64,000 nt of DNA. Origin: an uncultured Spirochaetota bacterium (GTDB taxonomy: Bacteria; Spirochaetota; Brevinematia; Brevinematales; JAOACQ01). The stretch's first letter is position 1; the number at the start of each line of letters is the position of its first letter. The position numbers and the translations under genes are program-made. Below are positions 3,380 through 22,989 of the stretch, piece by piece. The notes beneath the pieces were generated by a model. That model was given only the letters and a program-made list of their open reading frames with translations. It was not told the DNA's origin and made no database searches. Location: contig CAVYGN010000001.1 in NCBI GenBank assembly GCA_963768055.1, forward strand, positions 288,001 through 352,000. Reading direction: 5' to 3'.

Positions 3380-3390
3380 AGGTTGGAATT

Positions 3391-4923
3391 ATGAATGATG
3401 AAAATAATAGATCAAAACAGCCTTCCGTGATGATTGTCGACGATACGCCGGACAACCTGAACCTGCTATCTGCCATTCTTAAGGAATGCGGGTATCATGC
3501 CCGCCCTGCGCCCGGTGGAAAGCTGGCCCTGGCGGCCATAAATTCGGACCTTCCCGACCTGATCCTTCTGGACATAGTGATGCCAGATATGGACGGATTC
3601 GAGGTCTGCCGTGTCCTTAAAAGCAACAGGAAAACAAAAGATATCCCCATAATATTTCTTACAGCCCTGGACCGCCGGGAGGATGAAGAAAAGGGTTTGA
3701 AATTAGGCGCGGTGGATTATATCACAAAGCCGTTCAATAGCGAGGTAGTAAAGGCCCGCGTCAATACGCACCTCCAGCTGAAGTACCATCAGGAAAGGCT
3801 TGAACATATTGTAAGTGAGCGCACTGCAGAACTGATAAAGACCAATAAAGACCTCCTTTTAGAAATAGACGAAAGGAGGCGTACGGAAGAGGAATTAAAA
3901 TTCAGGAATGTAATTTTAACGACACAGGAGGAAGCTTCGATCGACGGCATCCTTATCGTTGACGGAAATGGAAAAATGATATCAATGAACTCACGTTTTA
4001 TAAAGATGTGGGGCATTCCGCCTGAAGTTGTGGCATCGAAATCCGATGAAAAAGCCCTTAATTCGATTATAACCAAGCTAGCCGACCAGGAGCAATTTCT
4101 GAATAAAGTACGTTTTCTGTATGAGCATCATAACGAGACAAGCCGGGATATAATAATCCTTAACGACGGCTCATATTTTGACCGTTATTCGGCCCCGATG
4201 GTCGGCCTTAACGGGACTTATTACGGACGAGTCTGGTATTTCCGCGATATCACGGAGCATATTAAGGATGAAAAAATCAGCAAGGATTCTTTAATGGAAA
4301 AGGAAGCTCTGATCAAGGAACTCTACCACCGGACTTACAACAATATGCAGGTCATAAGTTCTATGCTGAATGCCCAGGCTTATTATTTTAAAGATGAAAA
4401 AGTAATAACCGTGTTCCATGAAATGTCGGACAGGATCAACTCTATGGCTAAGGTTCATCAGAAACTCTATCAATCGAAGGACCTGTCAAGCATAAACCTC
4501 AGGGAATATATCATTGAAATATCCGGCCTTCTGGTGCAGAGCTATTCCGGACAGGAAAATAAGATCGGCGTCAGCATGGATCTTGATGATGAGAAAGTAC
4601 TTATGGACACAGCCGTCCCTTGCGGCCTTATCATAAATGAACTGATGACGAACGCCCTAAAATACGCTTTTCCGGCCGGCAGGAAGGGCATGATAAAAAT
4701 CTCGCTCCATAGGATGGATAATGAAAATCTGGAATTGCGGGTATCCGATAATGGAATCGGAGTCAATAGGGATTTTGACGCTAAAACAAACCGGGGAATG
4801 GGCCTGAATATTATTTATGATATAGCCGAAAAACAGCTTGCCGGAAAAGTGAGCTTTGAATCTGGCGATGGATTGACCGCTGTAATCCGGTTCAATGACA
4901 AACTATATCATAAAAGAATTTAA
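3391..4923 (+). CDS. REC-PAS-HisKA_2 sensor histidine kinase
   Basis: REC (IVDDTP...DIVMP), PAS, H-box ELYHRTYNNMQ, NELMTNALKYAF, DNGIG, GMGL. Confidence 0.9.
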   Translation: MNDENNRSKQPSVMIVDDTPDNLNLLSAILKECGYHARPAPGGKLALAAINSDLPDLILLDIVMPDMDGFEVCRVLKSNRKTKDIPIIFLTALDRREDEEKGLKLGAVDYITKPFNSEVVKARVNTHLQLKYHQERLEHIVSERTAELIKTNKDLLLEIDERRRTEEELKFRNVILTTQEEASIDGILIVDGNGKMISMNSRFIKMWGIPPEVVASKSDEKALNSIITKLADQEQFLNKVRFLYEHHNETSRDIIILNDGSYFDRYSAPMVGLNGTYYGRVWYFRDITEHIKDEKISKDSLMEKEALIKELYHRTYNNMQVISSMLNAQAYYFKDEKVITVFHEMSDRINSMAKVHQKLYQSKDLSSINLREYIIEISGLLVQSYSGQENKIGVSMDLDDEKVLMDTAVPCGLIINELMTNALKYAFPAGRKGMIKISLHRMDNENLELRVSDNGIGVNRDFDAKTNRGMGLNIIYDIAEKQLAGKVSFESGDGLTAVIRFNDKLYHKRI

Positions 4924-4945
4924 AAAATGTTTATGGAGACTGCGA

Positions 4946-6310
4946 ATGAACAATTTTTTTGATTTTCTGAGTAATCCAGACTCTCAGTTCGTATTTATCT
5001 TACTGCTTTTTATAATAGGAGCCGCGATTGTTTTCTTTATCATTCTAAAGATGATCAATAAAAATCTATCGATTTCTGTAATTGAAAAAGCGGTCAATGA
5101 AAAAAACTATAAGCAGGCTCTCGAATCGGCTTTCAAATATTTAAAGTCAAAATCATCCAACTATTTTATTTATTATTACATGGGCAAGGCATACGAGGGC
5201 CTTTTTCAATACCATATGGCGATCGAATCCTATGAGAAGTCGCTGGTTCAGGTTGGTAAAACATCCGCGCAGAGTAGAGGTGTTGAAATACAATTGAAAC
5301 TGGCTAATCTATTCCGCATTATTAAAAAATTCGATTCGGCCTTCGGATATTATAAAATGGTTCTGACAAAACAATCTAATAATAAGGACGCCCTCTGGAA
5401 TATAGCCGGGCTTTATTTTGAACAGAAGAAATATGTCCCGGCCAAGCAGTGCCTGGAAAAAATCACAGTCCTTCAGCCTAAATTCGGCAAGGCAAAGTTA
5501 TTACTTGCAAAAATTTATTTCCAGCTTGGCGAATATCAGAAATCTATTGTTGAGCTTAAGAAATTCTTTGCAGTGAATGATGAGGTATCCCTGACTGTTG
5601 GCAGTGAAACCTCCCTTCTGCTGGCAGATAATTATATCGCTTCAAAGCGGTACGGTGATGCTATCAAAACATTAAAGCCGCTATTGAATGATAAAAATGC
5701 TTCAGGGACTATATTATTAAAAGTAGTAACATGCCTTATCAAAGACAATAAATCCGAAGAGGCGATAGCGCTGACTGAGGACTACCTGCTCCGTATACCG
5801 GTCCTGGAAAGATGCGGAATCCTTTATACGATCGGATCAGCATACAAAGATATCGGGGAAATTTATAAAGCGATTTTAGTCTGGAAGGCTGCTTACAGCC
5901 TTAACCCGAATTATCTTGATCTGAACAATATATTTTCACGCTATAGTAAATTGGTAAACAATCCATGGCTTGAAAGCTATTTTACTTCAAACGACTTTAC
6001 TTTTGAGAAATACGTTCGCAGGAAACTTGAAATTTTCATGCAGGATAATCTGATAGAAAAACAGCAAATATTCTGGATTTTTAAAAATGGGAATAACTGC
6101 TCAGTACTATACAGGCCGCCGGAAATCATAAGCCTGCTCTCGCTGGAGAGGATTGAGGACTTCTTCAACAGTACCGGTTATTCCAATATCTCCATCGATC
6201 TTTACACCCTTTTCGGGGTGGAAGTTGACGGAAAGACAAAGAGCCTTTTTTATAAAAAAATCAAGGAAATTTCCGAGGATGGTTTTCTGCATGTTTTTAA
6301 TAAAGATTAG
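4946..6310 (+). CDS. Membrane-anchored tetratricopeptide repeat protein
   Basis: N-terminal TM helix, repeated TPR-like helices (YYYMGKAYE..., ALWNIAGLYF...); start moved to ATG 4946, which follows a GGAG RBS. Confidence 0.8.
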   Translation: MNNFFDFLSNPDSQFVFILLLFIIGAAIVFFIILKMINKNLSISVIEKAVNEKNYKQALESAFKYLKSKSSNYFIYYYMGKAYEGLFQYHMAIESYEKSLVQVGKTSAQSRGVEIQLKLANLFRIIKKFDSAFGYYKMVLTKQSNNKDALWNIAGLYFEQKKYVPAKQCLEKITVLQPKFGKAKLLLAKIYFQLGEYQKSIVELKKFFAVNDEVSLTVGSETSLLLADNYIASKRYGDAIKTLKPLLNDKNASGTILLKVVTCLIKDNKSEEAIALTEDYLLRIPVLERCGILYTIGSAYKDIGEIYKAILVWKAAYSLNPNYLDLNNIFSRYSKLVNNPWLESYFTSNDFTFEKYVRRKLEIFMQDNLIEKQQIFWIFKNGNNCSVLYRPPEIISLLSLERIEDFFNSTGYSNISIDLYTLFGVEVDGKTKSLFYKKIKEISEDGFLHVFNKD

Positions 6311-6348
6311 ACTGTCAGTAAAAGAATGAAAAGGGGAGGAAATATTAT

Positions 6349-7038
6349 ATGCTGAAAAGGAAAATACTCATTGTGGAAGACGAGATCATGATAGCAAGAG
6401 AAATAGAACGACTGCTTGAAAACCTGGGTTACGAAACAGCTGAAATTGCCGGATCGGGAGAAGAAGTAATTGAAGAGGTTAAAAAAGGAGATGTCGATCT
6501 GATCCTTATGGATATAGTCATTAAGGGAGAGCAGGACGGCATACAGACAGCCCAGACTATACAGGAACAATTTGATATCCCGGTCATTTTTTTGACCGCA
6601 TATTTCGACGATAATACACGGGAACGGGCTAAACTAACGGAACCCTTCGGGTATATCATAAAACCTGTTCAGAAGAAGGAACTGCAGATAGCGATTGAAA
6701 TGGCATTTTATAAGCATCAGGCAAACGCTCTTATAAAAAAAGAAAAGGAATGGCTCCATACAATCATTGACAGCATCAAGGACGGCCTGATAGCAGTGGA
6801 TACCGACGACAAAATAAAGTTCATCAATATACAGGCCGCTTCACTCTGCGGATACAGCCCTGAAGAAGCGGCCGGAAAAGAACTGGGAGATATCCTGAAG
6901 ATGAAGATAAGCGACTCGAGCAATGAAGCATCGCTTATTCATAAAAACGGAGAAAAAAAAAGCATATCATATTTCCTTAAAGACACTTTTGATAAAAAAG
7001 GGGAGCGAATCGGCGCAGTAATATTTTTCAATGCTTAG
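6349..7038 (+). CDS. Response regulator receiver + PAS protein without an output domain
   Basis: ILIVEDE...LMDIVI...FLTAY...YIIKP, followed by a PAS start (IIDSIKDGLIAVD). Confidence 0.85.
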   Translation: MLKRKILIVEDEIMIAREIERLLENLGYETAEIAGSGEEVIEEVKKGDVDLILMDIVIKGEQDGIQTAQTIQEQFDIPVIFLTAYFDDNTRERAKLTEPFGYIIKPVQKKELQIAIEMAFYKHQANALIKKEKEWLHTIIDSIKDGLIAVDTDDKIKFINIQAASLCGYSPEEAAGKELGDILKMKISDSSNEASLIHKNGEKKSISYFLKDTFDKKGERIGAVIFFNA

Positions 7039-7114
7039 TACTACCCCGCCGGTAAAGTAATGAAGAGAGGCAGCCCAACCCCTTCAGGTCATATGTCCCT
7101 TCTTATTGATTGGG

Positions 7115-7609
7115 TCACCCAATATTAAAACAATATCCCGCCTCTGTATATTTTTTATTCCCAAGTATTATTTCTTTATATTTTTTTTCGATTCCGCCAT
7201 GTTTTTTATAAAAGTTATTAAATTTTGTCGTACTTAATGTCCATACGATTAATTTTTTTCGGTTATTCTTTTTAAAGTAAGAAACCATTTTATTAAATAA
7301 CTTTGAACCTATTCCTTTATTCTGGCAATCAGGATCGACATAAAATTCGATTATTTCCGAATCATATTCCGACAGCCTCAGTTTGCCGGAAATAAAACCT
7401 GCTATTTTATTATTTTGTTCATAAACGAATGCTTTAATTAAATTAAAATTGATTTCTTTAGTAAGATTTTTTGTATATTTATTTTCATTATATTTTAATT
7501 CCATCAAAATGTCAGGATAATTTTTACTGGTAAATACTTCTTTTTTCCAAACTTTAGTAATTATTGAAGTCATTGAATTAATATCGTCTGCAGCAGCTTC
7601 TCTGATCAT
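7115..7609 (-). CDS. GNAT family N-acetyltransferase
   Basis: MIREA start, FYVDPDCQNKGIGSKL acetyl-CoA motif, FYKKHGG. Confidence 0.88.
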   Translation of the reverse strand: MIREAAADDINSMTSIITKVWKKEVFTSKNYPDILMELKYNENKYTKNLTKEINFNLIKAFVYEQNNKIAGFISGKLRLSEYDSEIIEFYVDPDCQNKGIGSKLFNKMVSYFKKNNRKKLIVWTLSTTKFNNFYKKHGGIEKKYKEIILGNKKYTEAGYCFNIG

Positions 7610-7799
7610 ATTCTATTACTCCGGATTTACGGAACTAAACAGACACGCTAAATTTTAAAAACATTTAACATATATAATACTGATCCTTATTTCCCGGTAA
7701 GTCAAGATGAAAATTATTATATTTTTGTCATGATGTTCATTAAAGCTGACAAATCATTTGTTTATTATGAAACAAGTTTTTTAAAAATTTATGACTTAA

Positions 7800-7869
7800 G
7801 GGCGCCTCTAAAATACCCTGCGGGCACAAGCCCTTCGGATAGGAATCCACTAACGGGGACAGGGCGCCC
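7800..7869. repeat. GC-rich 70-bp element bounded by the inverted repeat GGGCGCC/GGCGCCC
   Basis: gggcgcc at 7800 and ggcgccc ending at 7869, internal hairpin gggc-acaa-gccc, inside an AT-rich intergenic region. Confidence 0.4.
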
Positions 7870-7908
7870 CATAGGCAAATTTATAGAATTAAGCAATAAA
7901 TTATTTAT

Positions 7909-9912
7909 TTAAGGTAAAATTCTTGAGTTATTAATACTGCCCTTAATACACTCTTTCGGCTCGCTGAAATAAAACCCCTGGGAATAATCAATACCCAGTT
8001 CCAGGCATTTTTCATACACTTCTTTGGAATGGACGAATTCCGCTATGGTCAAAATACCGAGTTCTTTCGCGGCGTTGACTATCATTTTCGCAATAATGTA
8101 ACTTTCTCGATCTTTATCGATGTTCTTTATTATGGAAGCGTCGATCTTGATATAATCGACTTTCAGTTTGATGATATATTCAAAATTCGAATAACCGGCG
8201 CCGAAATCATCTATGGCGAACTTGCACCCCAAAGCTTTAACTTCACTGATAAAATCGGTCATAACTTTAAAATTGAAAATGCCCTCCGATTCAGTTATCT
8301 CAAAGACCGTGCGGCGGGCAATGCCGGCATTTCGGTAGAGCATATGTTTAATGAGACGGTTCGTATCCTGGTTTAGGATATCTTTTACCGTAAGATTGAT
8401 CGAAAACTCGTCGGCGGTATCTTTAAAAATTCTGAAAGCCTTTTTGATTACGATGCTCGTTATCTGGCTATAAAGCCTGATTTTCTGAGCTATAACGAGA
8501 AAATTATACGGACCGATCACTTCCCCATCGGTATCAATCATTCTGACAAGGCATTCATAATTACTGACTTTTCCGTTTTTATTATTGACAATCGGCTGGT
8601 AGTAGACTGTAATACGGTCATCTTTTAATGCTTTCTTCAATTTGTCTGCCCACAGGATATTTTTCTCATATTCCTTATTGATCTCCATTGATTCCTCATA
8701 AACAAGGAAGGATTTTTTAATTTTTTTAGCCTCTTTGAGCACCATATCGGCGTTATTGATAATTTTGCTCTTCAGGGAATTAGCTGAAGAGTATTTATCC
8801 AGGCAGCTATAATCGGCAACACCGATCGTAACGCGGATATTGATTTCATGATTTTCAAATATAAAAACATTGTCATTAATCAGTTCAAACAGGTATTGAA
8901 CAATATAGTCAACCGATTTTCTGCTGGAATAGGTCGAGTCCAGCGGCAAATCCATTAATATGGCAAATTCATCCCCATGCATTTTATAGATATGATAATC
9001 ATAGCCGAAAGACAGCTTATTCAATCGGGCGGACATTTCCAGCAGGATATAATCCCCCGCTTCGTTCCCAAAAAAATCATTGATCTCTTTAAAAGAATCT
9101 ATATTGATCAGGAGTATCAGGGGATTTTTCATATTCTCAATATCCAAGATAAGTTTTTCACGGTTAGGCTGTCCGGTCAGTGAGTCGGTATAAAGCCTTC
9201 GGGAAAGCGACTCTTTTAAATCAACAAATTTATTGATCAGTGAGCCGTTCATGGATAAAATGAGTATCAGAAAAGCATATTCCATAGTATAAATGAAAAC
9301 ATATATTTTATTTGAAACCATGACATCGTTCATAATAAAGAAGAAAAAAACAACCAATGCGCCGATTATCGGCCTTGTATATTTGTTATAATCCGATTTA
9401 TTTGTTTTTATCAGGGCATAGAGAAATAGAAAATAACATAAAATCTGAAATGCATATTCGATAATATAAATTATGCCGGGAGTCGCTTCATAGTATGTGA
9501 ATTTGCGGTTAAATATTGAAAAATGCTTTATGGCCGTGTTGTTTATTGAAAATGTCAGGTCGTTCTGGACAAAAATGCCTAATAAGAATAAAACCAGGTT
9601 TATTATTATAAAACAAATAAGAAATGGTTTATATTTTTTTCCCAATAAATAATAAATAAACAAACCCAGGGCGATGCTGATGAAATTCGTAATGGAAAGC
9701 TGAAGCCTTTGCCAGATAATTCCCTGCTCAAGGGAATTTGAATTATAGAGACCGGAACAGAATATATCGTATATACAGACAGTTACTGACAAAAAAGCGA
9801 ACGCAAAATATTCCATTTCTTTCCGTTGCTTCAGGTAGAGGAAAAAATGGTATATTGCGGTATAGAAGCAGACCGCAGCCATTAAGAGAGGCGGTATAGA
9901 TAATATAGACAT
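7909..9912 (-). CDS. 7TM-GGDEF-EAL protein (probable c-di-GMP phosphodiesterase)
   Basis: About 7 N-terminal TM helices, DSLTGQPNR, degenerate HGDEF, ECLVR, EITESE, IDDFGAGYSNF, IKIDAS, QGFYF. Confidence 0.9.
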   Translation of the reverse strand: MSILSIPPLLMAAVCFYTAIYHFFLYLKQRKEMEYFAFAFLSVTVCIYDIFCSGLYNSNSLEQGIIWQRLQLSITNFISIALGLFIYYLLGKKYKPFLICFIIINLVLFLLGIFVQNDLTFSINNTAIKHFSIFNRKFTYYEATPGIIYIIEYAFQILCYFLFLYALIKTNKSDYNKYTRPIIGALVVFFFFIMNDVMVSNKIYVFIYTMEYAFLILILSMNGSLINKFVDLKESLSRRLYTDSLTGQPNREKLILDIENMKNPLILLINIDSFKEINDFFGNEAGDYILLEMSARLNKLSFGYDYHIYKMHGDEFAILMDLPLDSTYSSRKSVDYIVQYLFELINDNVFIFENHEINIRVTIGVADYSCLDKYSSANSLKSKIINNADMVLKEAKKIKKSFLVYEESMEINKEYEKNILWADKLKKALKDDRITVYYQPIVNNKNGKVSNYECLVRMIDTDGEVIGPYNFLVIAQKIRLYSQITSIVIKKAFRIFKDTADEFSINLTVKDILNQDTNRLIKHMLYRNAGIARRTVFEITESEGIFNFKVMTDFISEVKALGCKFAIDDFGAGYSNFEYIIKLKVDYIKIDASIIKNIDKDRESYIIAKMIVNAAKELGILTIAEFVHSKEVYEKCLELGIDYSQGFYFSEPKECIKGSINNSRILP

Positions 9913-12034: not shown

Positions 12035-12112
12035 TTAACCCTGCCAGTTTCATAGCTGTTTAAAACGCAATATTGATAATTATCATTGAAAAATCAATAA
12101 TAAAATTTAAGT

Positions 12113-12141
12113 TTGACTATTCGTTATATTATAGTTATATA
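12113..12141 (+). promoter_or_regulatory. Putative sigma70 promoter of the ackA-like operon
   Basis: TTGACT-17 bp-TATATA; palindrome TGATAATTATCA just upstream at 12074-12085. Confidence 0.4.
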
Positions 12142-12367
12142 TAGTTGTAATTATTAATTTTCTTTTTGTATCAAGGGTACACTCTAATTGTAAAAATGCC
12201 TTCATGTATGAAAGACGACACCGCATAGCAGAATATGTAATCGTAAAAATCAAAGCTAAAATAACCTCTGTTTTTAAATACAAAAAAAGTTTAAGTGCTT
12301 TATAATAAGTGAGAGTTGGAGTAATGACCGGAGGGAGATGGATGAATCCCTAAAAAAAGGATTTAAA

Positions 12368-13585
12368 ATGAACATTTTGGTTTTTAATTGCGGGAGTTCA
12401 TCTGTATCTTACAAAGTTTTTAAGGTTACAGATTTAGATAAATTTGATGTTATCATCGCCGGTAAAGCTCATAGAGTAGGGGTAACAGGCAGCGAACCTT
12501 CATTTATTGAGCATGAGTATAAAGAAATAATTCATAAAGATGTTTTACCAATAACCAGTTACGGGCAGGCCGCAAAGCTGATATTAAAATTCATTAAAGA
12601 AAATAATGTAGTAATTGATTGTATAGGCAATAGATTTGTTCACGGCGGGACTTATTTCAATAAATCAGTTTTCGTTAATGAGGAGAACTTGAAAAAACTT
12701 AAATTGTGTCTCCCGCTGGCGCCTCTTCATAATCCGATAGCCTTAAGGGTTATTTTTGAATCAAGGAAAGTTTTTACTAATATAAGTCAATATGTGGTTT
12801 TTGATTCTGCATTTCATTCAACTATTCCTGATTACGCCTATACTTACGCTTTGCCGAAACGTATAGTGGAAAAATACAATTATCGGAAATATGGTTTTCA
12901 CGGGCTTTCATATTCATACGTTATTAAAACTGTTTCTGATTTTTTAGAAATACCGTCTGAAAAACTGAAAATCGTAGCATGTCACCTCGGAACAGGCGGC
13001 TCAAGCGTTGCGGCTATTAAAAATGGTTATTCTGTTGACACTTCTATGGGTTTTTCTCCTTTATCAGGTCTTGTAATGAGTACAAGAAGCGGGGATATTG
13101 ACCCTATGATTATGATATATATGATGGTATTTTATGGATATAGGAATGACGATCTGTTGAATTTTCTCAATAAAAAAAGCGGTCTGCTTGGCGTTTCCGG
13201 ATTTTCAAGCGATATAAGAGATATTATAAGCAGGATTTCCGTAGAAAAACAGGCGGGACTGGCTTTCAAAATGTATATACAACGCTTAAAAAAATATATT
13301 GGAAGTTATATTATTGCTGCATTAGGAGGGATTGATGTTTTAATTTTTACGGATGATATAGGCGTTAAGAATCCGCTTGTCAGGGAAAAAGTATGTGAAG
13401 ACATGGAATGGTGCGGGATTGTACTGGACAAAGAAAAAAATAAAAAATACGGAATGAAAAAGCCGGAGCTTTTGAATTCAATGGACTCAAAAGCCCGTAT
13501 TATTGCTGTTCCGACAGATGAGGAAGTTGTGATAGCCTGGGAAGGATTAAAATTGTTAAAGGAAGAAAAAAATGCTGCTCTTTGA
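12368..13585 (+). CDS. ackA: Acetate kinase with Entamoeba-like (putatively PPi-dependent) motif variants
   Basis: NCGSSS, RFVHGG, LAPLHNP, FDSAFH, YGFHG, CHLGTGGSS, TRSGD, FTDDIG, PTDEE; alternative start at 12338. Confidence 0.88.
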   Translation: MNILVFNCGSSSVSYKVFKVTDLDKFDVIIAGKAHRVGVTGSEPSFIEHEYKEIIHKDVLPITSYGQAAKLILKFIKENNVVIDCIGNRFVHGGTYFNKSVFVNEENLKKLKLCLPLAPLHNPIALRVIFESRKVFTNISQYVVFDSAFHSTIPDYAYTYALPKRIVEKYNYRKYGFHGLSYSYVIKTVSDFLEIPSEKLKIVACHLGTGGSSVAAIKNGYSVDTSMGFSPLSGLVMSTRSGDIDPMIMIYMMVFYGYRNDDLLNFLNKKSGLLGVSGFSSDIRDIISRISVEKQAGLAFKMYIQRLKKYIGSYIIAALGGIDVLIFTDDIGVKNPLVREKVCEDMEWCGIVLDKEKNKKYGMKKPELLNSMDSKARIIAVPTDEEVVIAWEGLKLLKEEKNAAL

Positions 13586-14618
13586 ACCTGAAGCTCCTTA
13601 TTTGAATTGGTTTTTGATAAATAAAGGAAAAATTGAAGAGGGCAAATTCATTTTTGATAGAAAATGCATGGACGCAGTGAGTGAGAAACTTGGCGGAATT
13701 GAAGATGTGAAAAAAATAGGGTATATTTTATATCATGGAGGTGAAGAAATTAAATCACCGGTAAGTCGTTTAACGGATAATAATATTATTGATTTTGAGA
13801 AGTGTGTTAAATACAACCCCGAACTTAATGATATAACCTTCAAGACTGCGAAATACTGGATGAAAAGAATTCCCGGTGCTGAGCATTTTTTGTTTTGCGA
13901 CACTGCATTCTTTTTAAAACTTCCGCAAGAGTCCAGTTCTTATGCCATTCCATATGAGCTTAGCAGGATAGGTGTAAAAAGATATGGAGGATATGGCTTA
14001 CTCCACCGGTGGGTTTACAAAAAAACCGAACATTTGAATAAAAATGGTATTCATAGATTGATAAGTGTTTATTTAGGAAATAATACTAACTTAGCCGCCA
14101 TAAGTAATAATAGGCCACTGGATACAAGCATGGGTTTTACCCGAATAGAGGGGATAATGTCATCGGGAGGGTGCGGTGATATTGATCCTACGATTATATT
14201 TAATCTTAATTCCGCAGGTTTGGAATTTAAAGAAATTAACAAGCTGCTCAGCCGGGAAAGCGGGTTTTCAGCTTTTCCAGGCAAAAATAACGATTTTTTT
14301 AATGTTATAAATAGAATTAATAAGAGGACTTCAGCGGATGTAAAAGAAGTTTTCTGCTATAGTATAGTAAAATACATCGGGGCTTTTATTGCCGAGCTCG
14401 GGGGTGTTGATTCAATAGTTTTTTCAAGTGAAAATCTGCGGGCTGCCGGCAGTTTTATTATGGAAATAATAAACAAACTTCAATTTTTAGGGGTTAAATG
14501 TAAATTAAAAGAAGAAGGGGATAAGGATTTTTTAAAAATATCAGAAACACGCTCGAAAATTAAAGTATATTGTTTTAATTACAAAAAGTGGAATATTCTT
14601 GATCAAAAATATATTTAA
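13572..14618 (+). CDS. Degenerate acetate kinase paralogue
   Basis: Keeps DTAFF, YAIP, DTSMGF, GDIDP, LGGVD; catalytic motifs are replaced (GYILYHGG, YNPELN, YGGYG, VYLGNN, SSGGCGD) and the N-terminal NxGSSS and C-terminal TxEE are absent. Confidence 0.78.
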   Translation: MLLFEPEAPYLNWFLINKGKIEEGKFIFDRKCMDAVSEKLGGIEDVKKIGYILYHGGEEIKSPVSRLTDNNIIDFEKCVKYNPELNDITFKTAKYWMKRIPGAEHFLFCDTAFFLKLPQESSSYAIPYELSRIGVKRYGGYGLLHRWVYKKTEHLNKNGIHRLISVYLGNNTNLAAISNNRPLDTSMGFTRIEGIMSSGGCGDIDPTIIFNLNSAGLEFKEINKLLSRESGFSAFPGKNNDFFNVINRINKRTSADVKEVFCYSIVKYIGAFIAELGGVDSIVFSSENLRAAGSFIMEIINKLQFLGVKCKLKEEGDKDFLKISETRSKIKVYCFNYKKWNILDQKYI

Positions 14619-14629
14619 GGAGTGAAGGA

Positions 14630-15421
14630 ATGATTAAAGAAAAAGCATTTTTAGAAGATGTGGGAATGAGAGACCTTCCATTTCCAATGAAGGTAATCTC
14701 GAAATTTAACGCGGATGGACAGCCTACTATCGCGAATATTTCCATTAATGCGCGCATTATGCGGGATTTTGAACCGGAATGGATAGATAAGTTTATAAGG
14801 ATTCTGCATTCTCATAGGGAAAAAATAGGAACCAGCACACTAACCACGAATATTTTAGATTATCTTAAAGAATTGAATGCGTCAATGGTTGTTATTGATT
14901 TTAGTTATCCATTTTTTATTGAAAAAACAACCCCTGTATCAAAAGAAAAATGCCTTGTCAGATACATGTGCTCTTACAGCGTAAAAGCTTATCTCACTAT
15001 GGATAAACCTGATATACTTTTTAAAATATCGGTTCCGGCCCTTACTACATATCCACTTTCAAATGAAGAACTGAAAGGGGGTTTATTCGCACAATTAAGC
15101 ATTGTAAATATTGAGATTGAGCCTAAAAAACAGATCTTTCCGGAGGATATTGTAGATATTGTCGATAGGCATGCAATAGCCCCGGTTTATTCTTTTCTGA
15201 CAAAAGAAGACCAGAATTTCATCATTAACAAATTACATACCGAGAAAAAAACAAGTGTTATTCTGACCGATGAAATAAAGGATGAATTTGCACATAATAG
15301 TGAAGTTGAATGGTATAAAGTCAGCTGTACGAATTATGGAATGATGCATTCATACCTCACTTTAATCAGTACTGAAAAAAGTATGTGGATTCCATTCAGC
15401 GGTATCGAAGAAGAGATTTAA
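14630..15421 (+). CDS. GTP cyclohydrolase FolE2 (GCYH-IB)-like protein lacking catalytic motifs
   Basis: DVGMRDLPFP, QPTIA, FSYPFFIEKTTPVSK, PVYSFLTKEDQ are collinear with FolE2; the CPCS, HNQR and ESIH motifs are absent. Confidence 0.75.
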   Translation: MIKEKAFLEDVGMRDLPFPMKVISKFNADGQPTIANISINARIMRDFEPEWIDKFIRILHSHREKIGTSTLTTNILDYLKELNASMVVIDFSYPFFIEKTTPVSKEKCLVRYMCSYSVKAYLTMDKPDILFKISVPALTTYPLSNEELKGGLFAQLSIVNIEIEPKKQIFPEDIVDIVDRHAIAPVYSFLTKEDQNFIINKLHTEKKTSVILTDEIKDEFAHNSEVEWYKVSCTNYGMMHSYLTLISTEKSMWIPFSGIEEEI

Positions 15422-16440: not shown

Positions 16441-17400
16441 ATGATTAACAACTTTAAACTTTCAGTCATCGTTCCCGTTTACAATGAAGAAAAAAATATT
16501 CCCCCATTGCTTGAAAGACTGAATAAAGTCATATCCGAAATCGGATGTGAATATGAAATAATATTCTGCATGGACCCCTGCAGGGATAAAACCGAAGAAT
16601 TAATACTGAATTACAGGAAAAAAGACGCCAATATTAAATTGATAAAAATGTCGCGCCGTTTCGGCCAGCCTGCCTGCACGCTGGCGGGGATCCATTACTG
16701 CACGGGCGTTATCTGCGTTGTGATTGACGCCGATCTCCAGGACCCGCCGGAATTGATTAAAGAAATGATTGCAAAATGGAAGGAAGGCTACCATGTTGTC
16801 TATGCCCAGCGGAAGAGCAGGAAGGGTGAAACCATTATAAAAAAACTCGTGGCCTTTCTAGGCTATAAAATCATCAACAGGATATCCGATGTGAGTATTC
16901 CGAGAAATACCGGAGATTTTCGGCTTATAAGCAGGGAAGTAATAGATAATTTAAAGGTATTAAAAGAAAACGACGCCTTTTTAAGAGGGCTGGTCGGTTA
17001 TATAGGGTTCAACCAGATAGGTATTTTATATGAAAGGGATTCAAGGCTGAACGGTAAAGGTAAATATAACAGGTTTTTCGGTTCTCTTAAAATCGGTTTG
17101 AACGGCGTTCTAAGTTTTTCCAAGTATCCGCTGGATTTGATATCGATTTCAGGTTTAATAGTCGCTTTATTCAGTTTTTTATTGGGAATTGCATATATCA
17201 TATTCAGCCTGCTGCATATTAAGATTCCCTGGGGAAATCCCACTCTTGTTATTTTAATTTCCTTTTACAGCGGAATCCAGCTGTTAAGCCTTGGAATCAT
17301 CGGCCAATACCTCGCGAGAATGTTCGACGAGGTCAAAAGGAGACCGATTTTTATTGTCCAGGAAGCGCATGGGTTTGAAATTATCTGGGAAAAAGAGTAG
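16441..17400 (+). CDS. GT2 polyprenol-phosphate glycosyltransferase (GtrB-like)
   Basis: SVIVPVYNEE, SRRFGQ, IDADLQDPPE, GDFRL, two C-terminal TM helices. Confidence 0.9.
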   Translation: MINNFKLSVIVPVYNEEKNIPPLLERLNKVISEIGCEYEIIFCMDPCRDKTEELILNYRKKDANIKLIKMSRRFGQPACTLAGIHYCTGVICVVIDADLQDPPELIKEMIAKWKEGYHVVYAQRKSRKGETIIKKLVAFLGYKIINRISDVSIPRNTGDFRLISREVIDNLKVLKENDAFLRGLVGYIGFNQIGILYERDSRLNGKGKYNRFFGSLKIGLNGVLSFSKYPLDLISISGLIVALFSFLLGIAYIIFSLLHIKIPWGNPTLVILISFYSGIQLLSLGIIGQYLARMFDEVKRRPIFIVQEAHGFEIIWEKE

Positions 17401-17412
17401 TTTGTATAAATT

Positions 17413-17877
17413 ATGTGGAATAGCATTATTACACTTTTTCAAAATATAATATCCGATAAAATAGAAATTTATAAAAAAATTAAATTCCTGTTCATAGGCG
17501 GGACCACCGCCCTGGTGAATTTTTCTCTTATCTATCTGACCAACGGAATTTTAAAACTTAATCATAATTTATCGATTTCAATTTCTTTTTTCTCTGCGAT
17601 GATTTATCATTTCATGATGAACAAAATGTTTGTTTTCCAGGAAAAAAAATTATCGAGGCTCAAGTACCAGATCATTCAATACCTGATTTTATCATTTATA
17701 AATTATTTGATCAATCTGGGGGTCGTAAACTTATTACTCCTGTTCAAGATCAATATTTACATCGGGGTTGCGGCCGCGACAATAATAACAATGCTGTTGA
17801 CATATTTTATCATGAATAGATTGATTTTTAACAAAAAAGCCGCCGGCTTTATAAATTTATCCAGGAAAACGGAGTAA
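17413..17877 (+). CDS. GtrA family flippase-like membrane protein
   Basis: KFLFIGGTTALVNF...FMMNKMFVF, 4 TM helices, follows the GtrB-like gene. Confidence 0.85.
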   Translation: MWNSIITLFQNIISDKIEIYKKIKFLFIGGTTALVNFSLIYLTNGILKLNHNLSISISFFSAMIYHFMMNKMFVFQEKKLSRLKYQIIQYLILSFINYLINLGVVNLLLLFKINIYIGVAAATIITMLLTYFIMNRLIFNKKAAGFINLSRKTE

Positions 17878-17881
17878 TAAA

Positions 17882-18835
17882 TTGAAGTATTTTGTTACCG
17901 GCGGCGCCGGATTTATCGGGAGCAATATAACCGACAGGCTCCTTGACACTAATAATTCAGTAACCGTTTATGATAATTTTTCCACCGGATTTGAAGAGTT
18001 TTTAAACAGTGCGAAAAGATCTCCCGGCCTTAAAATAGTCGGGGGAGACTTGTTAGACCCGGAAACGCTTGCAGCCGCAATGCGGGACTGCGACTTCGTA
18101 ATACATTTTGCGGCAAATGCCGATGTAAGGTTCGGGATGGAACACCCGCAAAAAGATTTAAATCAGAATATCATCGCGACTTATAATGTTCTTGAAGCAA
18201 TGCGGAAAAATAATATTAAAAAAATCGCTTTTTCATCGACAGGCTCGATTTATGGAGAATCAAAAATTATTCCCACCCCTGAGGATGCGCCCTTTCCGGT
18301 TCAGACCTCCCTTTACGGAGCCTCAAAATTGGCCGGCGAAGGCTTGATCCAGGCTTATTGCGAGGGTTTCGGGTTTCAAGGGTGGATTTTCAGGTTTGTA
18401 TCAATCCTGGGGGAACGGTACACGCATGGGCATATTTTTGATTTTTATAAAATGCTCCTTGAAAATCCCGATAAACTCAGGGTTTTAGGGAACGGACATC
18501 AGAAGAAGTCTTATTTATACATCCAGGACTGCATCGACGCGATTTTTTTCGCCCTGGAAAAGTCGGACGATGAAGTAAATATTTTCAATCTCGGTACAAA
18601 CGAATACTGCGAAGTAAACGATTCGATCGGCTGGATTTCCGGCAATCTTGGCCTGAAGCCGGCACTGGATTATACCGGCGGAGAGCGCGGCTGGATAGGG
18701 GATAATCCTTTTATATTTTTAGACTGCTCGAAAATAAATAAACTTGGCTGGAAGCCCGGATTATCTATTAAAAGCGCGGTTATAAAGACTCTTGAATATT
18801 TAAAGGAAAACAAATGGATTATGGAAAGGAGATAA
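17882..18835 (+). CDS. NAD-dependent epimerase/dehydratase
   Basis: VTGGAGFIGS, FSSTGSIYG, YGASK; TTG start. Confidence 0.9.
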   Translation: MKYFVTGGAGFIGSNITDRLLDTNNSVTVYDNFSTGFEEFLNSAKRSPGLKIVGGDLLDPETLAAAMRDCDFVIHFAANADVRFGMEHPQKDLNQNIIATYNVLEAMRKNNIKKIAFSSTGSIYGESKIIPTPEDAPFPVQTSLYGASKLAGEGLIQAYCEGFGFQGWIFRFVSILGERYTHGHIFDFYKMLLENPDKLRVLGNGHQKKSYLYIQDCIDAIFFALEKSDDEVNIFNLGTNEYCEVNDSIGWISGNLGLKPALDYTGGERGWIGDNPFIFLDCSKINKLGWKPGLSIKSAVIKTLEYLKENKWIMERR

Positions 18836-18839
18836 ATAA

Positions 18840-19673
18840 TTGAAATCTGTAATTGTTTTCGGCGGAAGCCTGGGAATCGGCAAAAAGATAGCTTTTCATT
18901 TTTTAGAAAATAAATATAATGCTACAGTGTTTGCAAGGGCAAAAAGCAACCTGGAATTATTCCGCAGAGAAGCTGAAGATAAAGGGATGCATGCTAACAT
19001 TCAACAGGGAGATGTCGGAAATATCGATGATGTGAAAAATGCTTTTAAAGAACATAAAAAGAATTATGGCTCATTCCCTTCTTATGTGATAAATACCGCG
19101 GGGATCCAGGGGGCGCTGGGGCCGGCCTGGTCGCTGTCGCAGGCGGATTTTGAAAATGTAATTAAAGTAAATCTAACCGGAAGTTTTAATGTTTCAAAAA
19201 CGGCGATCGAGAATTTAATCGGGGAAAAGAAATCCGGGTCGATCATACTTTTTTCAGGCGGAGGATCATGCTACGCGCGTCCGAATTTTTCTTCATACGG
19301 GGTTTCAAAAACCGGGGTGATCAGACTTGTTGAAACAATAGCGGAAGAGCTGAAACAAAACGGCCTTAAAGGTATAATAATTAATGCAGTCTCGCCCGGC
19401 GCTGTAAGAACCAGGATGACGGAAGAAGTATTAAACTCGAAAGAAAGAGCCGGGGATAAAGCCTTCGGAGAAGCAAAAAAAACTATGGAAAACGGCGGGA
19501 CCCGTCTGAAAGACGTGATCGAACTGGTCGATTTTTTATGCAATAATGATTTAAACAAGGGTTTAAGCGGCAGATTGATACATTTCAGGGACGATTATAA
19601 AAAATTCGCAGAAATTCAAAAAGATAAAATCCATGATGATGCCGGGAAGCTCCGGAGAGTAAAATTGATATAA
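18840..19673 (+). CDS. SDR family oxidoreductase
   Basis: GGSLGIG, NTAG, YGVSK, NAVSPG; TTG start. Confidence 0.88.
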   Translation: MKSVIVFGGSLGIGKKIAFHFLENKYNATVFARAKSNLELFRREAEDKGMHANIQQGDVGNIDDVKNAFKEHKKNYGSFPSYVINTAGIQGALGPAWSLSQADFENVIKVNLTGSFNVSKTAIENLIGEKKSGSIILFSGGGSCYARPNFSSYGVSKTGVIRLVETIAEELKQNGLKGIIINAVSPGAVRTRMTEEVLNSKERAGDKAFGEAKKTMENGGTRLKDVIELVDFLCNNDLNKGLSGRLIHFRDDYKKFAEIQKDKIHDDAGKLRRVKLI

Positions 19674-19683
19674 AGAGGTACCG

Positions 19684-20658
19684 ATGAATGTCGCTATAAT
19701 CGGCTGCGGACTGATCGGGGAAAAGAGGGCGAGATCGCTCTGCGGCCATAAATTGGTGATCGTATCCGATAAAGACGGGAAAAGAGCCGATATTGTCAGC
19801 CGGATAAATAATCAGAACGCTATTGTCGCCAGGCATTGGGAAGAAGCGGCCGCTCATCCGGAGGTTGATATTGTCATTGTTTCAACAACGAACGATTCTT
19901 TAACGAGGATCGGATCATACGCCCTGGGCCATGATAAGCATGTTTTGATAGAAAAACCCGGGGCAAGGAATTCCGCAGAAATAGAACCCTTTTATAGGCA
20001 AAGCCTCAGTGTAAAAAAGAGGGTAAAAGTAGGTTTCAATTTACGGTATCATCCGGCGCTTTCAAAGGCTAAAAACATAATCGATTCGGGGGGGATCGGC
20101 GGATTGATGTTTATTCGAGGGCGGTACGGCCATGGCGGCAGGGCCGGGTATGATAAAGAATGGAGGGCAAACCCGGAAATTTCCGGGGGTGGAGAACTGA
20201 TCGACCAGGGCATTCACCTGATCGATTTATCCCGCTGGTTTATGGGGGATTTTGATATTATCGAAGGTTTCGCGTCTACATTTTTCTGGGATATGAAAGC
20301 GGACGATAACGGTTTTATTTCTTTAAGGAATGGGTCGGGCAGGGCTTCTTGGCTGCAGGTAAGCTGTACGGAATGGAAAAATATGTTTTGTCTTGAAATT
20401 TATGGGAAATATGGAAAACTCCAGATCGACGGACTTGGAGGAAGCTACGGGATTGAAACGCTCAAATTTTATAAAATGCTTCCGGAAATGGGGCCGCCTG
20501 AAACGACTATATGGGAATATCCGCAGGAAGACAGGTCCTGGGCGCTGGAGTTAAATGATTTTGTCGAAGCGATAGAAAAAAAAAGGGCTGTAAACGGCGA
20601 TTTAAACGATGCGTACCAGGCTCTGAAAATTGTCGATAAAATCTATGGGAGAATTTAA
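19684..20658 (+). CDS. Gfo/Idh/MocA family oxidoreductase
   Basis: IIGCGLIG, HVLIEKP, GFNLRY, GGGELIDQGIH. Confidence 0.9.
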   Translation: MNVAIIGCGLIGEKRARSLCGHKLVIVSDKDGKRADIVSRINNQNAIVARHWEEAAAHPEVDIVIVSTTNDSLTRIGSYALGHDKHVLIEKPGARNSAEIEPFYRQSLSVKKRVKVGFNLRYHPALSKAKNIIDSGGIGGLMFIRGRYGHGGRAGYDKEWRANPEISGGGELIDQGIHLIDLSRWFMGDFDIIEGFASTFFWDMKADDNGFISLRNGSGRASWLQVSCTEWKNMFCLEIYGKYGKLQIDGLGGSYGIETLKFYKMLPEMGPPETTIWEYPQEDRSWALELNDFVEAIEKKRAVNGDLNDAYQALKIVDKIYGRI

Positions 20659-21642
20659 ATGATAATTACCAGAAGTCCGCTGAGAATAACATTAGGAGGC
20701 GGAGGAACAGATCTCGCTTCTTATTATAATGAATTCGGCGGGTTTGTGATCGCTGCCGCGATCGATAAGTATATTTATATAACCCTGCATAAAACTTTTC
20801 AGCCCGGATATATAATAAAATACTCCCTGATGGAAAAAGTCATGGAAATTTCGGATATACAACATCCGATAATCAGGGAATCGCTGAAATTATTAGACTT
20901 GAAAGATAATTATATAGAACTTACAAGTATGGCGGATATTCCTTCCGGTACAGGCCTTGGCTCATCGAGCAGTTTCACGAGCGCTCTATTGAAAGCCCTT
21001 CATGTCTATAAAAGGGATTTTATTCATCCGAAAGAACTTGCCGAAGAGGCCTGCGATATTGAAATTAATAAACTCGGAGAACCGATAGGAAAGCAGGACC
21101 AGTACATTTCAACGTACGGAGGTTTAACCTGCTTCGACTTTAACCGGGATGGAAGTGTAGGGTCATATCCTTTAAGGATCGATAAAGAGACATTATATGA
21201 CCTGGAGGATAATCTGCTGCTGTTTTTTACAGGTTTTTCCAGAAGCGCTTCTTCGATATTAAAGGAACAAAACGATAAAAGTATTGAAAAAAATATCGAT
21301 ATGATAGAAAACCTTCATTTTGTAAAAGACCTGGGATTAAAAAGCAAGGAGGCTTTAGAAAAGGGCGATTTAACTAACTTCGGAGAATTGATGAATATTC
21401 ATTGGGAACATAAGAAAAAAAGATCGGGTTCTATTTCGAACCCGAAGATAAATGAATGGTACGACCTTGCCTTAAAGAACGGGGCTGCAGGAGGCAAACT
21501 TATCGGCGCCGGCGGAGGAGGTTTTCTGATGTTTTATGCCAAAGATAAGATCAAGTTAAGACATGCATTAATGAACGAAGGCCTTGAAGAAATCCGCTTC
21601 AGATTCGATTACGAGGGAACAAAGGTTGTTACGGAATCATGA
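20659..21642 (+). CDS. hddA: GHMP sugar kinase (HddA-like heptose-7-phosphate kinase)
   Basis: PLRITLGGGGTD, PSGTGLGSSS, GKQDQY, GGKLIGAGGGGF. Confidence 0.85.
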   Translation: MIITRSPLRITLGGGGTDLASYYNEFGGFVIAAAIDKYIYITLHKTFQPGYIIKYSLMEKVMEISDIQHPIIRESLKLLDLKDNYIELTSMADIPSGTGLGSSSSFTSALLKALHVYKRDFIHPKELAEEACDIEINKLGEPIGKQDQYISTYGGLTCFDFNRDGSVGSYPLRIDKETLYDLEDNLLLFFTGFSRSASSILKEQNDKSIEKNIDMIENLHFVKDLGLKSKEALEKGDLTNFGELMNIHWEHKKKRSGSISNPKINEWYDLALKNGAAGGKLIGAGGGGFLMFYAKDKIKLRHALMNEGLEEIRFRFDYEGTKVVTES

Positions 21643-22361
21643 TAAATGATATCGCCGTTTTAGCAGGCGGCCTTGCGACCCGCCTTTATCCTGTAACACA
21701 AAAGATGCCTAAATCGATGATAGATATTAACGGGAAGCCTTTTGTGCATCATCAGCTGGAATTATTAAAGAAAAACGGTCTGGAGCATGTAGTATTGTGC
21801 ATCGGATATATGGGCGGGATGATACAGGATTACGTTAAGGACGGGAGGCGATTCGGTTTAAAGGTCACATATTCTTTTGACGGGGATAACCTCCTTGGAA
21901 CAGGCGGGGCGATAAAAAAAGCCCTTCCGGAACTGCACGAAGTCTTTTTTGTGATGTACGGAGATTCTTATTTACCGGCAGGCTTTCTACCCGTATCGGA
22001 TTATTTTTTGAGGCATAATAAAAAAGCGCTGATGACGATTATAAAAAACGATAATAAATGGGACAAAAGCAACGTTGTTTTCAATAACGGGGCAATTACC
22101 GGGTATAATAAGAAGGTTACGGTACCTGAAATGAAATATATTGATTACGGACTGGGCATTTTCAGGAGAGCATGTTTTGACGGGATTAAAGAAAATGAAA
22201 TTGCGGACCTTGCAGATGTTTATAAGGGCCTGGCGTCTGAAAACGAACTTATAGGATACGAGGTTGAAGAAAGGTTTTACGAAATAGGATCGTTTAAGGG
22301 CATAGAAGAAACAAAAAAGCATTTAAGCAGCTTAAACACCGAGCTTGAAATTAAAGCATGA
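21639..22361 (+). CDS. hddC: Sugar-1-phosphate nucleotidyltransferase (HddC-like)
   Basis: LAGGLATRL, PKSM, LGTGGAI, YGDSY; heptose operon context. Confidence 0.8.
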   Translation: MINDIAVLAGGLATRLYPVTQKMPKSMIDINGKPFVHHQLELLKKNGLEHVVLCIGYMGGMIQDYVKDGRRFGLKVTYSFDGDNLLGTGGAIKKALPELHEVFFVMYGDSYLPAGFLPVSDYFLRHNKKALMTIIKNDNKWDKSNVVFNNGAITGYNKKVTVPEMKYIDYGLGIFRRACFDGIKENEIADLADVYKGLASENELIGYEVEERFYEIGSFKGIEETKKHLSSLNTELEIKA

Positions 22362-22383
22362 ATTTAAAATTACGGAGACCGGA

Positions 22384-22989
22384 ATGGATATTAAAGCATA
22401 CATTGAAACATTCTTGATGAATGTAATTAAAATCGCTGAAAAAATCGATAAAAGCTCCATAGAAAAGGCGGTTAATGTTCTTCTTGAAATAAAAAAGAAA
22501 CAGGGAAGGCTTTTTATACTCGGGGTGGGGGGGAGCGCCGGAAACGCCGGCCATGCCGTTAATGATTTCAGAAAACTGGCCGGCCTGGAATCTTATGCTC
22601 CGACCGATAATGTTTCCGAACTGACCGCGCGTATAAACGACGACGGCTGGGATACTGTTTTTGTAAATTGGCTGAAGGGAAGCCGGCTCAATTCTAACGA
22701 CGGAATTCTTGTTATTTCAGTGGGCGGCGGGAGCGAGGAAAAAAATATAAGCGTAAATATAGTTAAAGCCTTGAAATATGCCAAAGAGGCCGGTTCAAAG
22801 GTGATAGGACTTGTAGGCAGGGACGGCGGTTTTACGGCTAAGGCGGCGGATGCGTCTGTTTTAATCCCGGTTGCGGATGAGTGCATGGTTACGCCTTTGA
22901 CGGAGTCGTATCATGCCGTCGTATGGCACATGCTGGTTTCCCACCCCGCATTAAAGGACAATGACGCGAAATGGGAGTCGACAAAGTAA
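22384..22989 (+). CDS. gmhA: Sedoheptulose-7-phosphate isomerase (SIS domain, GmhA-like)
   Basis: GVGGSAGNAGH, LTARINDDG, GLVGRDGG; ATG 22384 follows a GGAG RBS. Confidence 0.82.
   Translation: MDIKAYIETFLMNVIKIAEKIDKSSIEKAVNVLLEIKKKQGRLFILGVGGSAGNAGHAVNDFRKLAGLESYAPTDNVSELTARINDDGWDTVFVNWLKGSRLNSNDGILVISVGGGSEEKNISVNIVKALKYAKEAGSKVIGLVGRDGGFTAKAADASVLIPVADECMVTPLTESYHAVVWHMLVSHPALKDNDAKWESTK

Follow-up and report, generated by a model that had tools for sequence, protein, structure and literature searches.

Here, we propose that an uncultured Spirochaetota bacterium (GTDB order Brevinematales) carries a three-gene acetate kinase module in which ACK1, an Entamoeba-type kinase, uses inorganic phosphate and pyrophosphate (Pi/PPi) rather than ATP/ADP, ACK2 is its non-catalytic partner, and FolE2L, a protein of the FolE2 fold, works with the pair. 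We give this reading somewhat better than an even chance of being right. The three genes form an operon, ACK1-ACK2-FolE2L, at positions 12368-15421 of the stretch analysed here (hereafter the window: 64,000 nucleotides (nt) of contig CAVYGN010000001.1, assembly GCA_963768055.1), where they overlap or are tightly spaced. ACK1 had been picked out earlier, from the letters of the window, as a bacterial acetate kinase bearing the signature of the PPi-dependent Entamoeba enzyme; that original prediction left out two conserved partner genes directly downstream. The features on which the argument rests are the following (aa, amino acids).

12368..13585, + strand: ACK1, a 405-aa Entamoeba-type acetate kinase and the presumed catalytic subunit (from profiles and alignments)
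12392..12421, + strand: PHOSPHATE1 region of ACK1, GSSSVSYKVF, intact (direct translation)
12980..13006, + strand: PHOSPHATE2 motif of ACK1, CHLGTGGSS, with Thr for Asn and one Gly inserted (direct translation)
13346..13372, + strand: ADENOSINE motif of ACK1, FTDDIGVKN (direct translation)
13572..14618, + strand: ACK2, a 348-aa acetate kinase paralogue (PF00871, 170.3 bits)
14630..15421, + strand: FolE2L, a 263-aa FolE2-fold protein (PF02649, 76.3 bits against a cut-off of 25)

ACK1 scores 376.9 bits against PF00871 (cut-off 22) and 389.3 bits against TIGR00016 (cut-off 293.4). Its open reading frame (ORF) has an alternative upstream ATG at 12338; from 12368 the protein is 405 aa long with the N-terminus MNILVFNCGSSS, and relatives share the same start. 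We favour 12368 because 13 of the 15 closest relatives (P0002-P0016) are also 405 aa long and because an AGGA lies 8-11 nt 5' of this ATG. The motifs first reported for ACK1 (CHLGTGGSS, FTDDIG, and GSSSVSYKVF) are reproduced exactly by direct translation, and the catalytic residues, described there as intact, prove to be N7, R89, H121, D146, H178, R240, and E385, all invariant across 23 aligned relatives, as are G9, S10, S11, and S12 of PHOSPHATE1. In the alignment to 1g99, the seven correspond to N7, R91, H123, D148, H180, R241, and E384 of Methanosarcina thermophila, which make up the catalytic set of that enzyme. The acetate pocket is likewise preserved, with V91, L120, F177, and P231 standing at the positions of M. 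thermophila V93, L122, F179, and P232 (pocket residues as listed in PMC5517563).

Among solved structures, the best match of ACK1 is 4h0o_A (366 bits), ahead of 2iir from Thermotoga (321), 6ioy from Porphyromonas (319), and 1g99 from M. thermophila (279); 4H0O is the Entamoeba histolytica acetate kinase, EhACK (PMC5517563). The Entamoeba motifs that the original prediction had quoted are borne out, in that both the 4h0o alignment and P0125 read HLGTGGSS and FTDQMGLEV. P0125 is itself the Entamoeba acetate kinase, as shown by a full-length match to 4h0o_A (834 bits) and by its source names. In PHOSPHATE2, ACK1 has both the extra Gly (Gly203) and the Thr201 of EhACK. At the sites typical of the ATP-dependent enzymes it departs from them, with Asp330 in place of Gly (M. 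thermophila Gly331), DDIGVKN in place of the GIGEN motif, and Thr in place of Asn.

How widespread is such a protein? The 120 best ACK1 homologues are 56-100% identical to it, the first being the window's own protein, and the named ones come from bins labelled Brevinematales, Omnitrophota, Elusimicrobia, Phycisphaerae, Sedimentisphaerales, Kiritimatiellae, and Bacteroidota. The pattern HLGTGG[SA]S is matched in 119 of these 120. A scan of 185,579 species genomes (one genome per species) with the peptide patterns CHLGTGG[SA]S and [FY]RKYGFHG yielded 376 stretches encoding a relative; 376 is an upper bound only, since [FY]RKYGFHG is not specific, so that the species genomes involved number no fewer than 80 and no more than 376. 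All locus counts given below refer to the best 80 of these at most 376 stretches, whose ACK1 is 49-85% identical to that of the window and which span more than 20 phyla. HLGTGG[SA]S is present in 79 of the 80 loci and the remaining one reads YLGTGGAS. The genes are currently annotated just as acetate/propionate family kinase.

The signature was compared position by position (EhACK numbering) between 189 bacterial members of the clade, which come from more than 20 phyla and nearly all from uncultured genome bins, and 20 ordinary acetate kinase representatives.

Position 176: Tyr in 181/189 bacterial members; His in 18/20 ordinary enzymes
Position 201: Thr in 189/189 bacterial members; Asn in 15/20 ordinary enzymes
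Inserted Gly: present in 189/189 bacterial members; in 0/20 ordinary enzymes
Position 322: Asp in 189/189 bacterial members; Ala or Gly in 20/20 ordinary enzymes
Position 323: Asp in 186/189 bacterial members; Gly in 20/20 ordinary enzymes
Position 324: Ile in 176/189 bacterial members; Ile in 18/20 ordinary enzymes
Position 326: Val/Leu/Ile in 177/189 bacterial members; Glu in 20/20 ordinary enzymes
Position 327: His in 63, Arg in 42, and Lys in 22 of 189 bacterial members; Asn in 16/20 ordinary enzymes

The signature of ACK1 is thus fixed in the clade and is no chance oddity. It bears directly on whether ACK1 might be an ordinary ATP-dependent acetate kinase isozyme with odd surface residues. 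Such an isozyme would fit a score above the cut-off of the general ackA model, the intact catalytic residues, the Pta gene adjacent in some relatives, and Ile at position 324 as in the ATP enzymes. Against it stand the Asp that has replaced the Gly invariant in those enzymes, the further Asp in place of the preceding Ala/Gly, the replacement of both the Glu and the Asn of GIGEN, and a PHOSPHATE2 loop that is one residue longer. Changes at these sites harm ATP use in the M. thermophila and Escherichia coli enzymes (PMC5517563); in M. thermophila, Gly331 strongly affects nucleotide use and the G331Q-I332M change lowers kcat 50- to >100-fold (PMC5517563). In addition, an ordinary AckA (HLGNG.S, FT[AG]GIGEN) lies within 10 kb of ACK1 in 6 loci by ORF and motif (455-514 bits by Pfam for the two scanned) and in 4 further loci by tblastn, that is in at least 10 of 80, and this coexistence is a sign of differentiated function. 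We consider an ordinary isozyme very improbable. As for the chemistry itself, ordinary use of ATP by ACK1 appears unlikely, because two Asp replace Ala/Gly-Gly, the loop is longer, and an ordinary AckA coexists in those loci.

The phylogeny points the same way. Quick trees separate 47 signature-bearing rows, including Entamoeba, from 20 ordinary ones (SH-like approximate likelihood ratio test, SH-aLRT, 99) and 42 signature-bearing rows, again including Entamoeba, from 12 ordinary ones (SH-aLRT 100); the second tree set left out 3 long representatives, 6 near-duplicate loci, and 8 ordinary representatives. The careful tree (54 rows, LG+C20, ultrafast bootstrap and SH-aLRT support) places the 12 ordinary rows in one clade (100/99) and Entamoeba among the signature-bearing rows, so that in this comparison of EhACK with ATP-dependent AckAs ACK1 groups with the EhACK rows and apart from the ordinary ones; one long signature-bearing row, P0128, attaches beside the ordinary clade. 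Taken with the motifs, the trees support placing ACK1 and the PPi-forming enzyme of Entamoeba in one acetate kinase subfamily. As an observation on the family at large, P0138, P0152, P0159, P0162, and others are fused forms of the ordinary acetate kinase, 570-776 aa long; each is extended by about 165 residues at its N-terminus, and some at the C-terminus too.

It had also been suggested that the window's lineage might have donated the Entamoeba gene, an idea that the careful tree does not bear out. There, E. histolytica/dispar, E. invadens, E. marina, and one 57%-identical protein form an Entamoeba-type clade (100/100), whose sister comprises three representatives (98/90). The window's ACK1 pairs with that of the Brevinematales bin L001 (99/91), and both belong to a clade of 27 rows (97/93) from which Entamoeba and the Anaerolineaceae are absent. 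Constraining Entamoeba to join the window lineage costs 38.8 log-likelihood units (approximately unbiased (AU) test, p 0.0237), the constrained rows having been picked after the tree was seen and the hypothesis itself being that of the original prediction. The donor idea is unsupported because Entamoeba lies outside the window clade and the AU test rejects their union. Among the bacterial members listed, identity to the Entamoeba protein is 44-49%, with no group prominent (46-48% for the window's relatives). Hence no donor lineage can be named and that of the window is not favoured. Within the bacteria, phyla are intermixed in the ACK1 trees, which reflects either movement of the module from phylum to phylum or wrong labels on some bins. 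One bin labelled Bacteroidetes (L002) has ACK1, ACK2, and FolE2L that are 83%, 77%, and 83% identical to those of the window, as close as the Brevinematales bin L001.

The second gene, ACK2, starts 14 nt before the end of ACK1. Its structural model (predicted local distance difference test, pLDDT, 85.5) has the full two-domain fold, with query TM-scores (TMq) of 0.78-0.86 to solved acetate kinases. The residues tell a different story from the fold. Across 54 ACK2 family members (M. thermophila numbering), Asn7 is retained in 4, Arg stands at the Arg91 position in 4 and at the Arg241 position in 1, the His180 position is mostly Tyr, Asp, Phe, Asn, or Gln (His being outside the five commonest residues), and Lys or Arg occupies the Glu384 position in 36; a Pro-rich sequence takes the place of GSSS, and the inserted Gly is lacking in all 54. 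The Asp148 position has Asp in 44 and Glu in 8. On these residues, ACK2 has an acetate kinase fold stripped of its catalytic and phosphate-binding residues and is predicted to be catalytically dead. Identities among ACK2 relatives range from 27 to 75%.

The third gene, FolE2L, begins 11 nt after ACK2. It scores 62 bits against the NCBIfam FolE2 equivalog, below the cut-off of 215, and its model (pLDDT 84.4) matches GTP cyclohydrolase IB by Foldseek with TMq 0.73-0.78 at 18-21% identity; a look-up in the ESM Atlas returned only clusters named FolE2. In a profile alignment with 2r5r, 3d2o, and 8g6c, the segments CPCSK, GAHNQRS, and ESIHNHS, which we take to be the metal and catalytic motifs of FolE2, become TTYPxSx, GLFGQLS, and GMLHSYS. 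The guanine-anchoring Glu of the Neisseria gonorrhoeae FolE2 structure presumably aligns with a Val that is invariant in FolE2L. The family has an invariant set of its own (H60, H62, R63, E98, K99, C108, C114, E172, H203, K207, H240, and E249) and a conserved C-terminal tail (residues 240-263) modelled with low confidence. FolE2L is very conserved across phyla (53-85% identity), which we rate above the conservation of both ACK1 (56-85%) and ACK2 (27-75%), and is therefore under strong selection. We propose that FolE2L is a T-fold protein that has lost the cyclohydrolase active site and has probably been neofunctionalised.

Judged by their residues, both ACK2 and FolE2L are pseudoenzymes, which raises another explanation: rather than being primarily metabolic, the trio might sense or regulate the status of acetyl phosphate or phosphate, its dead subunits serving as ligand-binding modules. 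Signalling genes do lie upstream in the window (3-9912). Those signalling neighbours are not conserved beside the module in the 80 loci, the catalytic residues of ACK1 are all strictly conserved, and the coupling to Pta described below points to metabolic flux. We assign the sensor explanation only the slimmest of chances.

The case for treating the three genes as a unit comes from their neighbourhoods, where partner presence was scored by tblastn on the 80 loci with flanks of up to 10 kb. ACK2 lies directly downstream of ACK1 in 78/80 loci. FolE2L is found in 61/80, of which 57 have it after ACK2 and 4 have it shortly before ACK1; as 6 loci end too early, this amounts to 61 of 74 assessable loci. 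When the 1,190 ORFs of the 80 loci and the window were clustered, nothing besides ACK2 and FolE2L occurred in more than 14 loci, and no conserved PPi-dependent enzyme was among the neighbours. Since ACK1 is nearly always in an operon with ACK2 and FolE2L, it probably works as part of a larger enzyme system. The near-universal presence and tight spacing of a dead paralogue further suggests an ACK1-ACK2 heterodimer instead of a homodimer. A natural fusion was also found: in a Sumerlaeota bin, a 623-aa protein with both Pfam domains, found on two contigs, joins ACK2 to FolE2L (P0271, L004:11200-13071). This fusion, together with the gene order, suggests that FolE2L acts with ACK2. The search for FolE2L fusions among longer proteins returned two, the other being P0122 (483 aa), in which ACK1 residues 1-303 are joined to the last ~180 residues of FolE2L and ACK2 is missing; we set it aside as a deletion or an assembly chimera, and not as evidence.

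Pta (PF01515, 323-353 bits) is the only other recurring neighbour, in 14 loci. In 7 loci it adjoins ACK1 at its start or overlaps that start; 2 further loci, both Syntrophales, have it on the same strand at a distance of 0.8-1.8 kb upstream. In the other 5 its placement differs, four of these (L006, L042, L046, and L065) having Pta beside a nearby ordinary AckA. Among the 9 loci with same-strand upstream Pta, FolE2L is missing in 6 of the 6 that are assessable, which represent only two or three independent lineages. Our guess, for which this complementary distribution of Pta and FolE2L is the sole basis, is that in the absence of Pta the acetyl phosphate comes from FolE2L. Part of its appeal is that the Entamoeba enzyme, too, lacks an established acetyl phosphate source (PMC9983610).

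In light of these findings, what might the module do? With catalytic and pocket residues kept and Pta linked in some genomes, acetyl phosphate/acetate is almost certainly the acyl substrate of ACK1, judging from sequence. Its partner substrate is likely to be Pi/PPi, by analogy with the Entamoeba enzyme: Pi/PPi is the best candidate acceptor/donor because it is what the one clade member assayed so far works with. By the same analogy, ACK1 would convert acetyl phosphate and Pi to acetate and PPi, saving the acyl-phosphate bond as pyrophosphate, with two Asp filling what would otherwise be the adenosine pocket and a PHOSPHATE2 loop one Gly longer. ACK2 would be a non-catalytic partner replacing the second subunit of the usual homodimer, and FolE2L would be a neofunctionalised T-fold protein acting with the ACK1-ACK2 pair, which, as our leading guess, may supply or handle the acyl phosphate in genomes without an adjacent Pta. 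A bolder version holds that ACK1-ACK2-FolE2L is one heteromeric enzyme forming pyrophosphate at the substrate level, with FolE2L either forming the acyl phosphate, as a new enzyme that replaces Pta without being homologous to it, or presenting the acceptor; we regard this as improbable. A complex prediction of ACK1 1-397, ACK2 1-343, and FolE2L 1-258, with FolE2L scored, returned 0.00, which is no answer and counts neither way.

Several observations weigh against the reading of a Pi/PPi-using kinase with two working partners. The recombinant Entamoeba enzyme is active alone, and a need for ACK2 and FolE2L in bacteria would hint that the bacterial system may act differently. The partners are themselves not universally required, because ACK2 is missing in two Chloroflexota loci (L053 and L068, each continuing for 10 kb downstream) and FolE2L in 13 assessable ones (2 Syntrophales, 7 Chloroflexota, and 4 of one Omnitrophota subclade). 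The top blastp match of ACK2 is an ordinary, not a signature-bearing, acetate kinase in 53/55 cases, so that ACK2 is not a simple recent duplicate of ACK1. No enzyme using PPi was recognised among the 59 window ORFs covered by the profile scan, and literature searches found no assay of any bacterial clade member. As to the signature, the residues that occlude the ATP site of the Entamoeba enzyme are T201, D322, Q323, M324, and E327 (PMC5931981), with the extra Gly203 of PHOSPHATE2 and Gln323-Met324 of ADENOSINE occluding the adenosine pocket (PMC5517563). ACK1 has T, D, D, I, and K at the five positions, two of them identical, and within the ADENOSINE motif only Asp322 is common to both. In the 189 members, position 323 is Asp (as tabulated above), not Gln, and position 327 is mostly basic, not Glu. 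Moreover, reciprocal swaps between the Entamoeba and Methanosarcina enzymes harm activity and never switch specificity (PMC5517563); because PPi use was never transferred, the motifs are markers and not proven determinants.

Some of the same evidence would suit an acceptor/donor that is neither ATP nor PPi, be it another nucleotide, polyphosphate, or a metabolite bound by FolE2L and phosphorylated from acetyl phosphate. T-fold enzymes normally bind purine- or pterin-like ligands, as is generally known; the strongly conserved T-fold FolE2L accompanies the kinase in most assessable loci, and the Entamoeba enzyme needs no partner of the FolE2L type for its activity as a recombinant. Position 323 differs from Entamoeba in all 189 members, position 327 is mostly basic, and for Asp-Asp bacterial forms the option of another substrate was raised by Dang and Ingram-Smith (PMC5517563). 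Conversely, FolE2L lacks CPCSK, GAHNQRS, and ESIHNHS and presumably the guanine anchor too, loci with Pta-ACK1-ACK2 and no FolE2L imply that the kinase pair can work alone, and there is no candidate ligand. We judge such an acceptor unlikely, while allowing it a substantial minority chance, and retain Pi/PPi use by ACK1 as our working proposal.

The operon is preceded by an AT-rich intergenic region.

12035..12367, + strand: AT-rich intergenic region, presumed to hold the promoter (from sequence)

Promoter-like hexamers at 12059-12101 are not enriched (16 seen against 16.4 expected from shuffles), and a terminator scan likewise gave nothing above shuffle expectation. The G+C content of the operon is 0.32-0.36, below the 0.40-0.49 found directly on either side; such a drop may point to transfer, although equally low values occur elsewhere in the window. 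The upstream TypA gene is adjacent to the module in none of the related loci. The 59 scanned ORFs include no match to Pta, phosphoketolase, PPi-phosphofructokinase, pyruvate phosphate dikinase, or membrane pyrophosphatase, and the two 727-aa ORFs at 53689-58129 do not encode pyrophosphatases.

The signalling cluster at 3-9912 comprises a hybrid PAS histidine kinase, a response regulator with an HD domain, a second response-regulator/histidine-kinase protein, a TPR protein, a response regulator with a PAS domain, a GNAT acetyltransferase, and a 7TM-GGDEF-EAL protein. Downstream of the operon, 16441-24286 encodes on one strand a family 2 glycosyltransferase, GtrA, an epimerase, a short-chain dehydrogenase, a GFO/IDH/MocA oxidoreductase, a GHMP kinase, a nucleotidyl transferase, a SIS isomerase, a HAD phosphatase, and a protein of the transaldolase/fructose-6-phosphate aldolase family; of these, the SIS, GHMP, nucleotidyl transferase, and HAD genes together are reminiscent of a nucleotide-activated heptose pathway. 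At 25582-29751 lie split archaeal-type glutamate synthase-like genes (GXGXG, Glu_synthase with 4Fe-4S, ferredoxin-like, and pyridine nucleotide-disulphide oxidoreductase). A possible mobile or defence island occupies 52622-63940 (- strand, with a lower G+C of 0.39); it encodes a Fic protein, two ORFs of about 727 aa (one with a clostripain C11 domain), a DUF5710 protein, and five further ORFs, the longest of 820 aa, that match nothing in Pfam.

The idea of a bacterial PPi-dependent acetate kinase is already in print as a speculation from 2017, when Dang and Ingram-Smith flagged four Anaerolineaceae sequences as "possible PPi-dependent ACKs" on the basis of an extended loop, a conserved Asp, and Asp at the Gln323 position (PMC5517563). 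ACK1 is thus a new member of a subfamily already flagged. The flagged set (Ornatilinea apprima, Longilinea, Flexilinea, and Leptolinea) shares the extra Gly and FTDD with ACK1 (PMC5517563). The O. apprima protein (L074/P0290) is 49% identical to ACK1 and falls among the signature-bearing rows, the Anaerolineaceae enzymes branching outside the 27-row window clade; in its locus the only partner is an ACK2 that has diverged to 27% identity, FolE2L being absent within 2.5 kb, and the locus of an Ornatilinea sp. (L053) has neither. Partner genes are not mentioned in the available text of PMC5517563, and our literature searches found no paper describing them or a three-gene module. The breadth of the clade and the conserved module therefore appear to be undescribed.

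The Entamoeba enzyme is still described as the sole known PPi-forming acetate kinase (PMC5517563, PMC5931981), with neither its specificity determinants nor the source of its acetyl phosphate understood (PMC9983610). Its subfamily is common in bacteria, which offers hundreds of natural variants for work on specificity. If our proposal is true, PPi and not ATP may be the form in which many anaerobes store the acetyl-phosphate bond, which would change energy-yield estimates in metabolic reconstructions. If the single heteromeric system were true, it would supply a candidate class for the missing acetyl phosphate source of the Entamoeba enzyme, and substrate-level formation of pyrophosphate would be widespread in uncultured anaerobes.

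How, then, does the module compare with known systems? EhACK (4H0O, EC 2.7.2.12) is about 50% identical to ACK1 over 388 columns, with an identical HLGTGGSS, and shares Thr201, Asp322, the Asp272/Arg274 pair, Tyr176, and a hydrophobic residue at 326; it differs in having Gln, Met, and Glu at 323, 324, and 327, where ACK1 has Asp, Ile, and Lys. The activity of EhACK has been assayed, whereas the window's ACK1 is known from its sequence. Ordinary AckA (EC 2.7.2.1; M. thermophila 1G99, T. maritima 2IIR) has the same fold, catalytic residues, and acetate pocket as ACK1, the ordinary representatives of 50%-identity clusters being about 36-44% identical to it; it has Asn instead of Thr, no inserted Gly, and FT[AG]GIGEN instead of FTDDIGxxN, and it forms a separate clade. 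Ordinary AckA is, moreover, a homodimer without a dead paralogue. GTP cyclohydrolase IB (3D2O, 2R5R, 8G6C) resembles FolE2L in its bimodular T-fold (profile E-values 2e-33 to 1e-24), from which FolE2L is set apart by its low identity (18-21%), three replaced motifs, its own invariant set, and its conserved C-terminal tail. The bacterial ACK1 is accompanied by ACK2 and FolE2L, and this unexpected pairing of a dead paralogue with a T-fold partner provides a direct experimental handle on the system.

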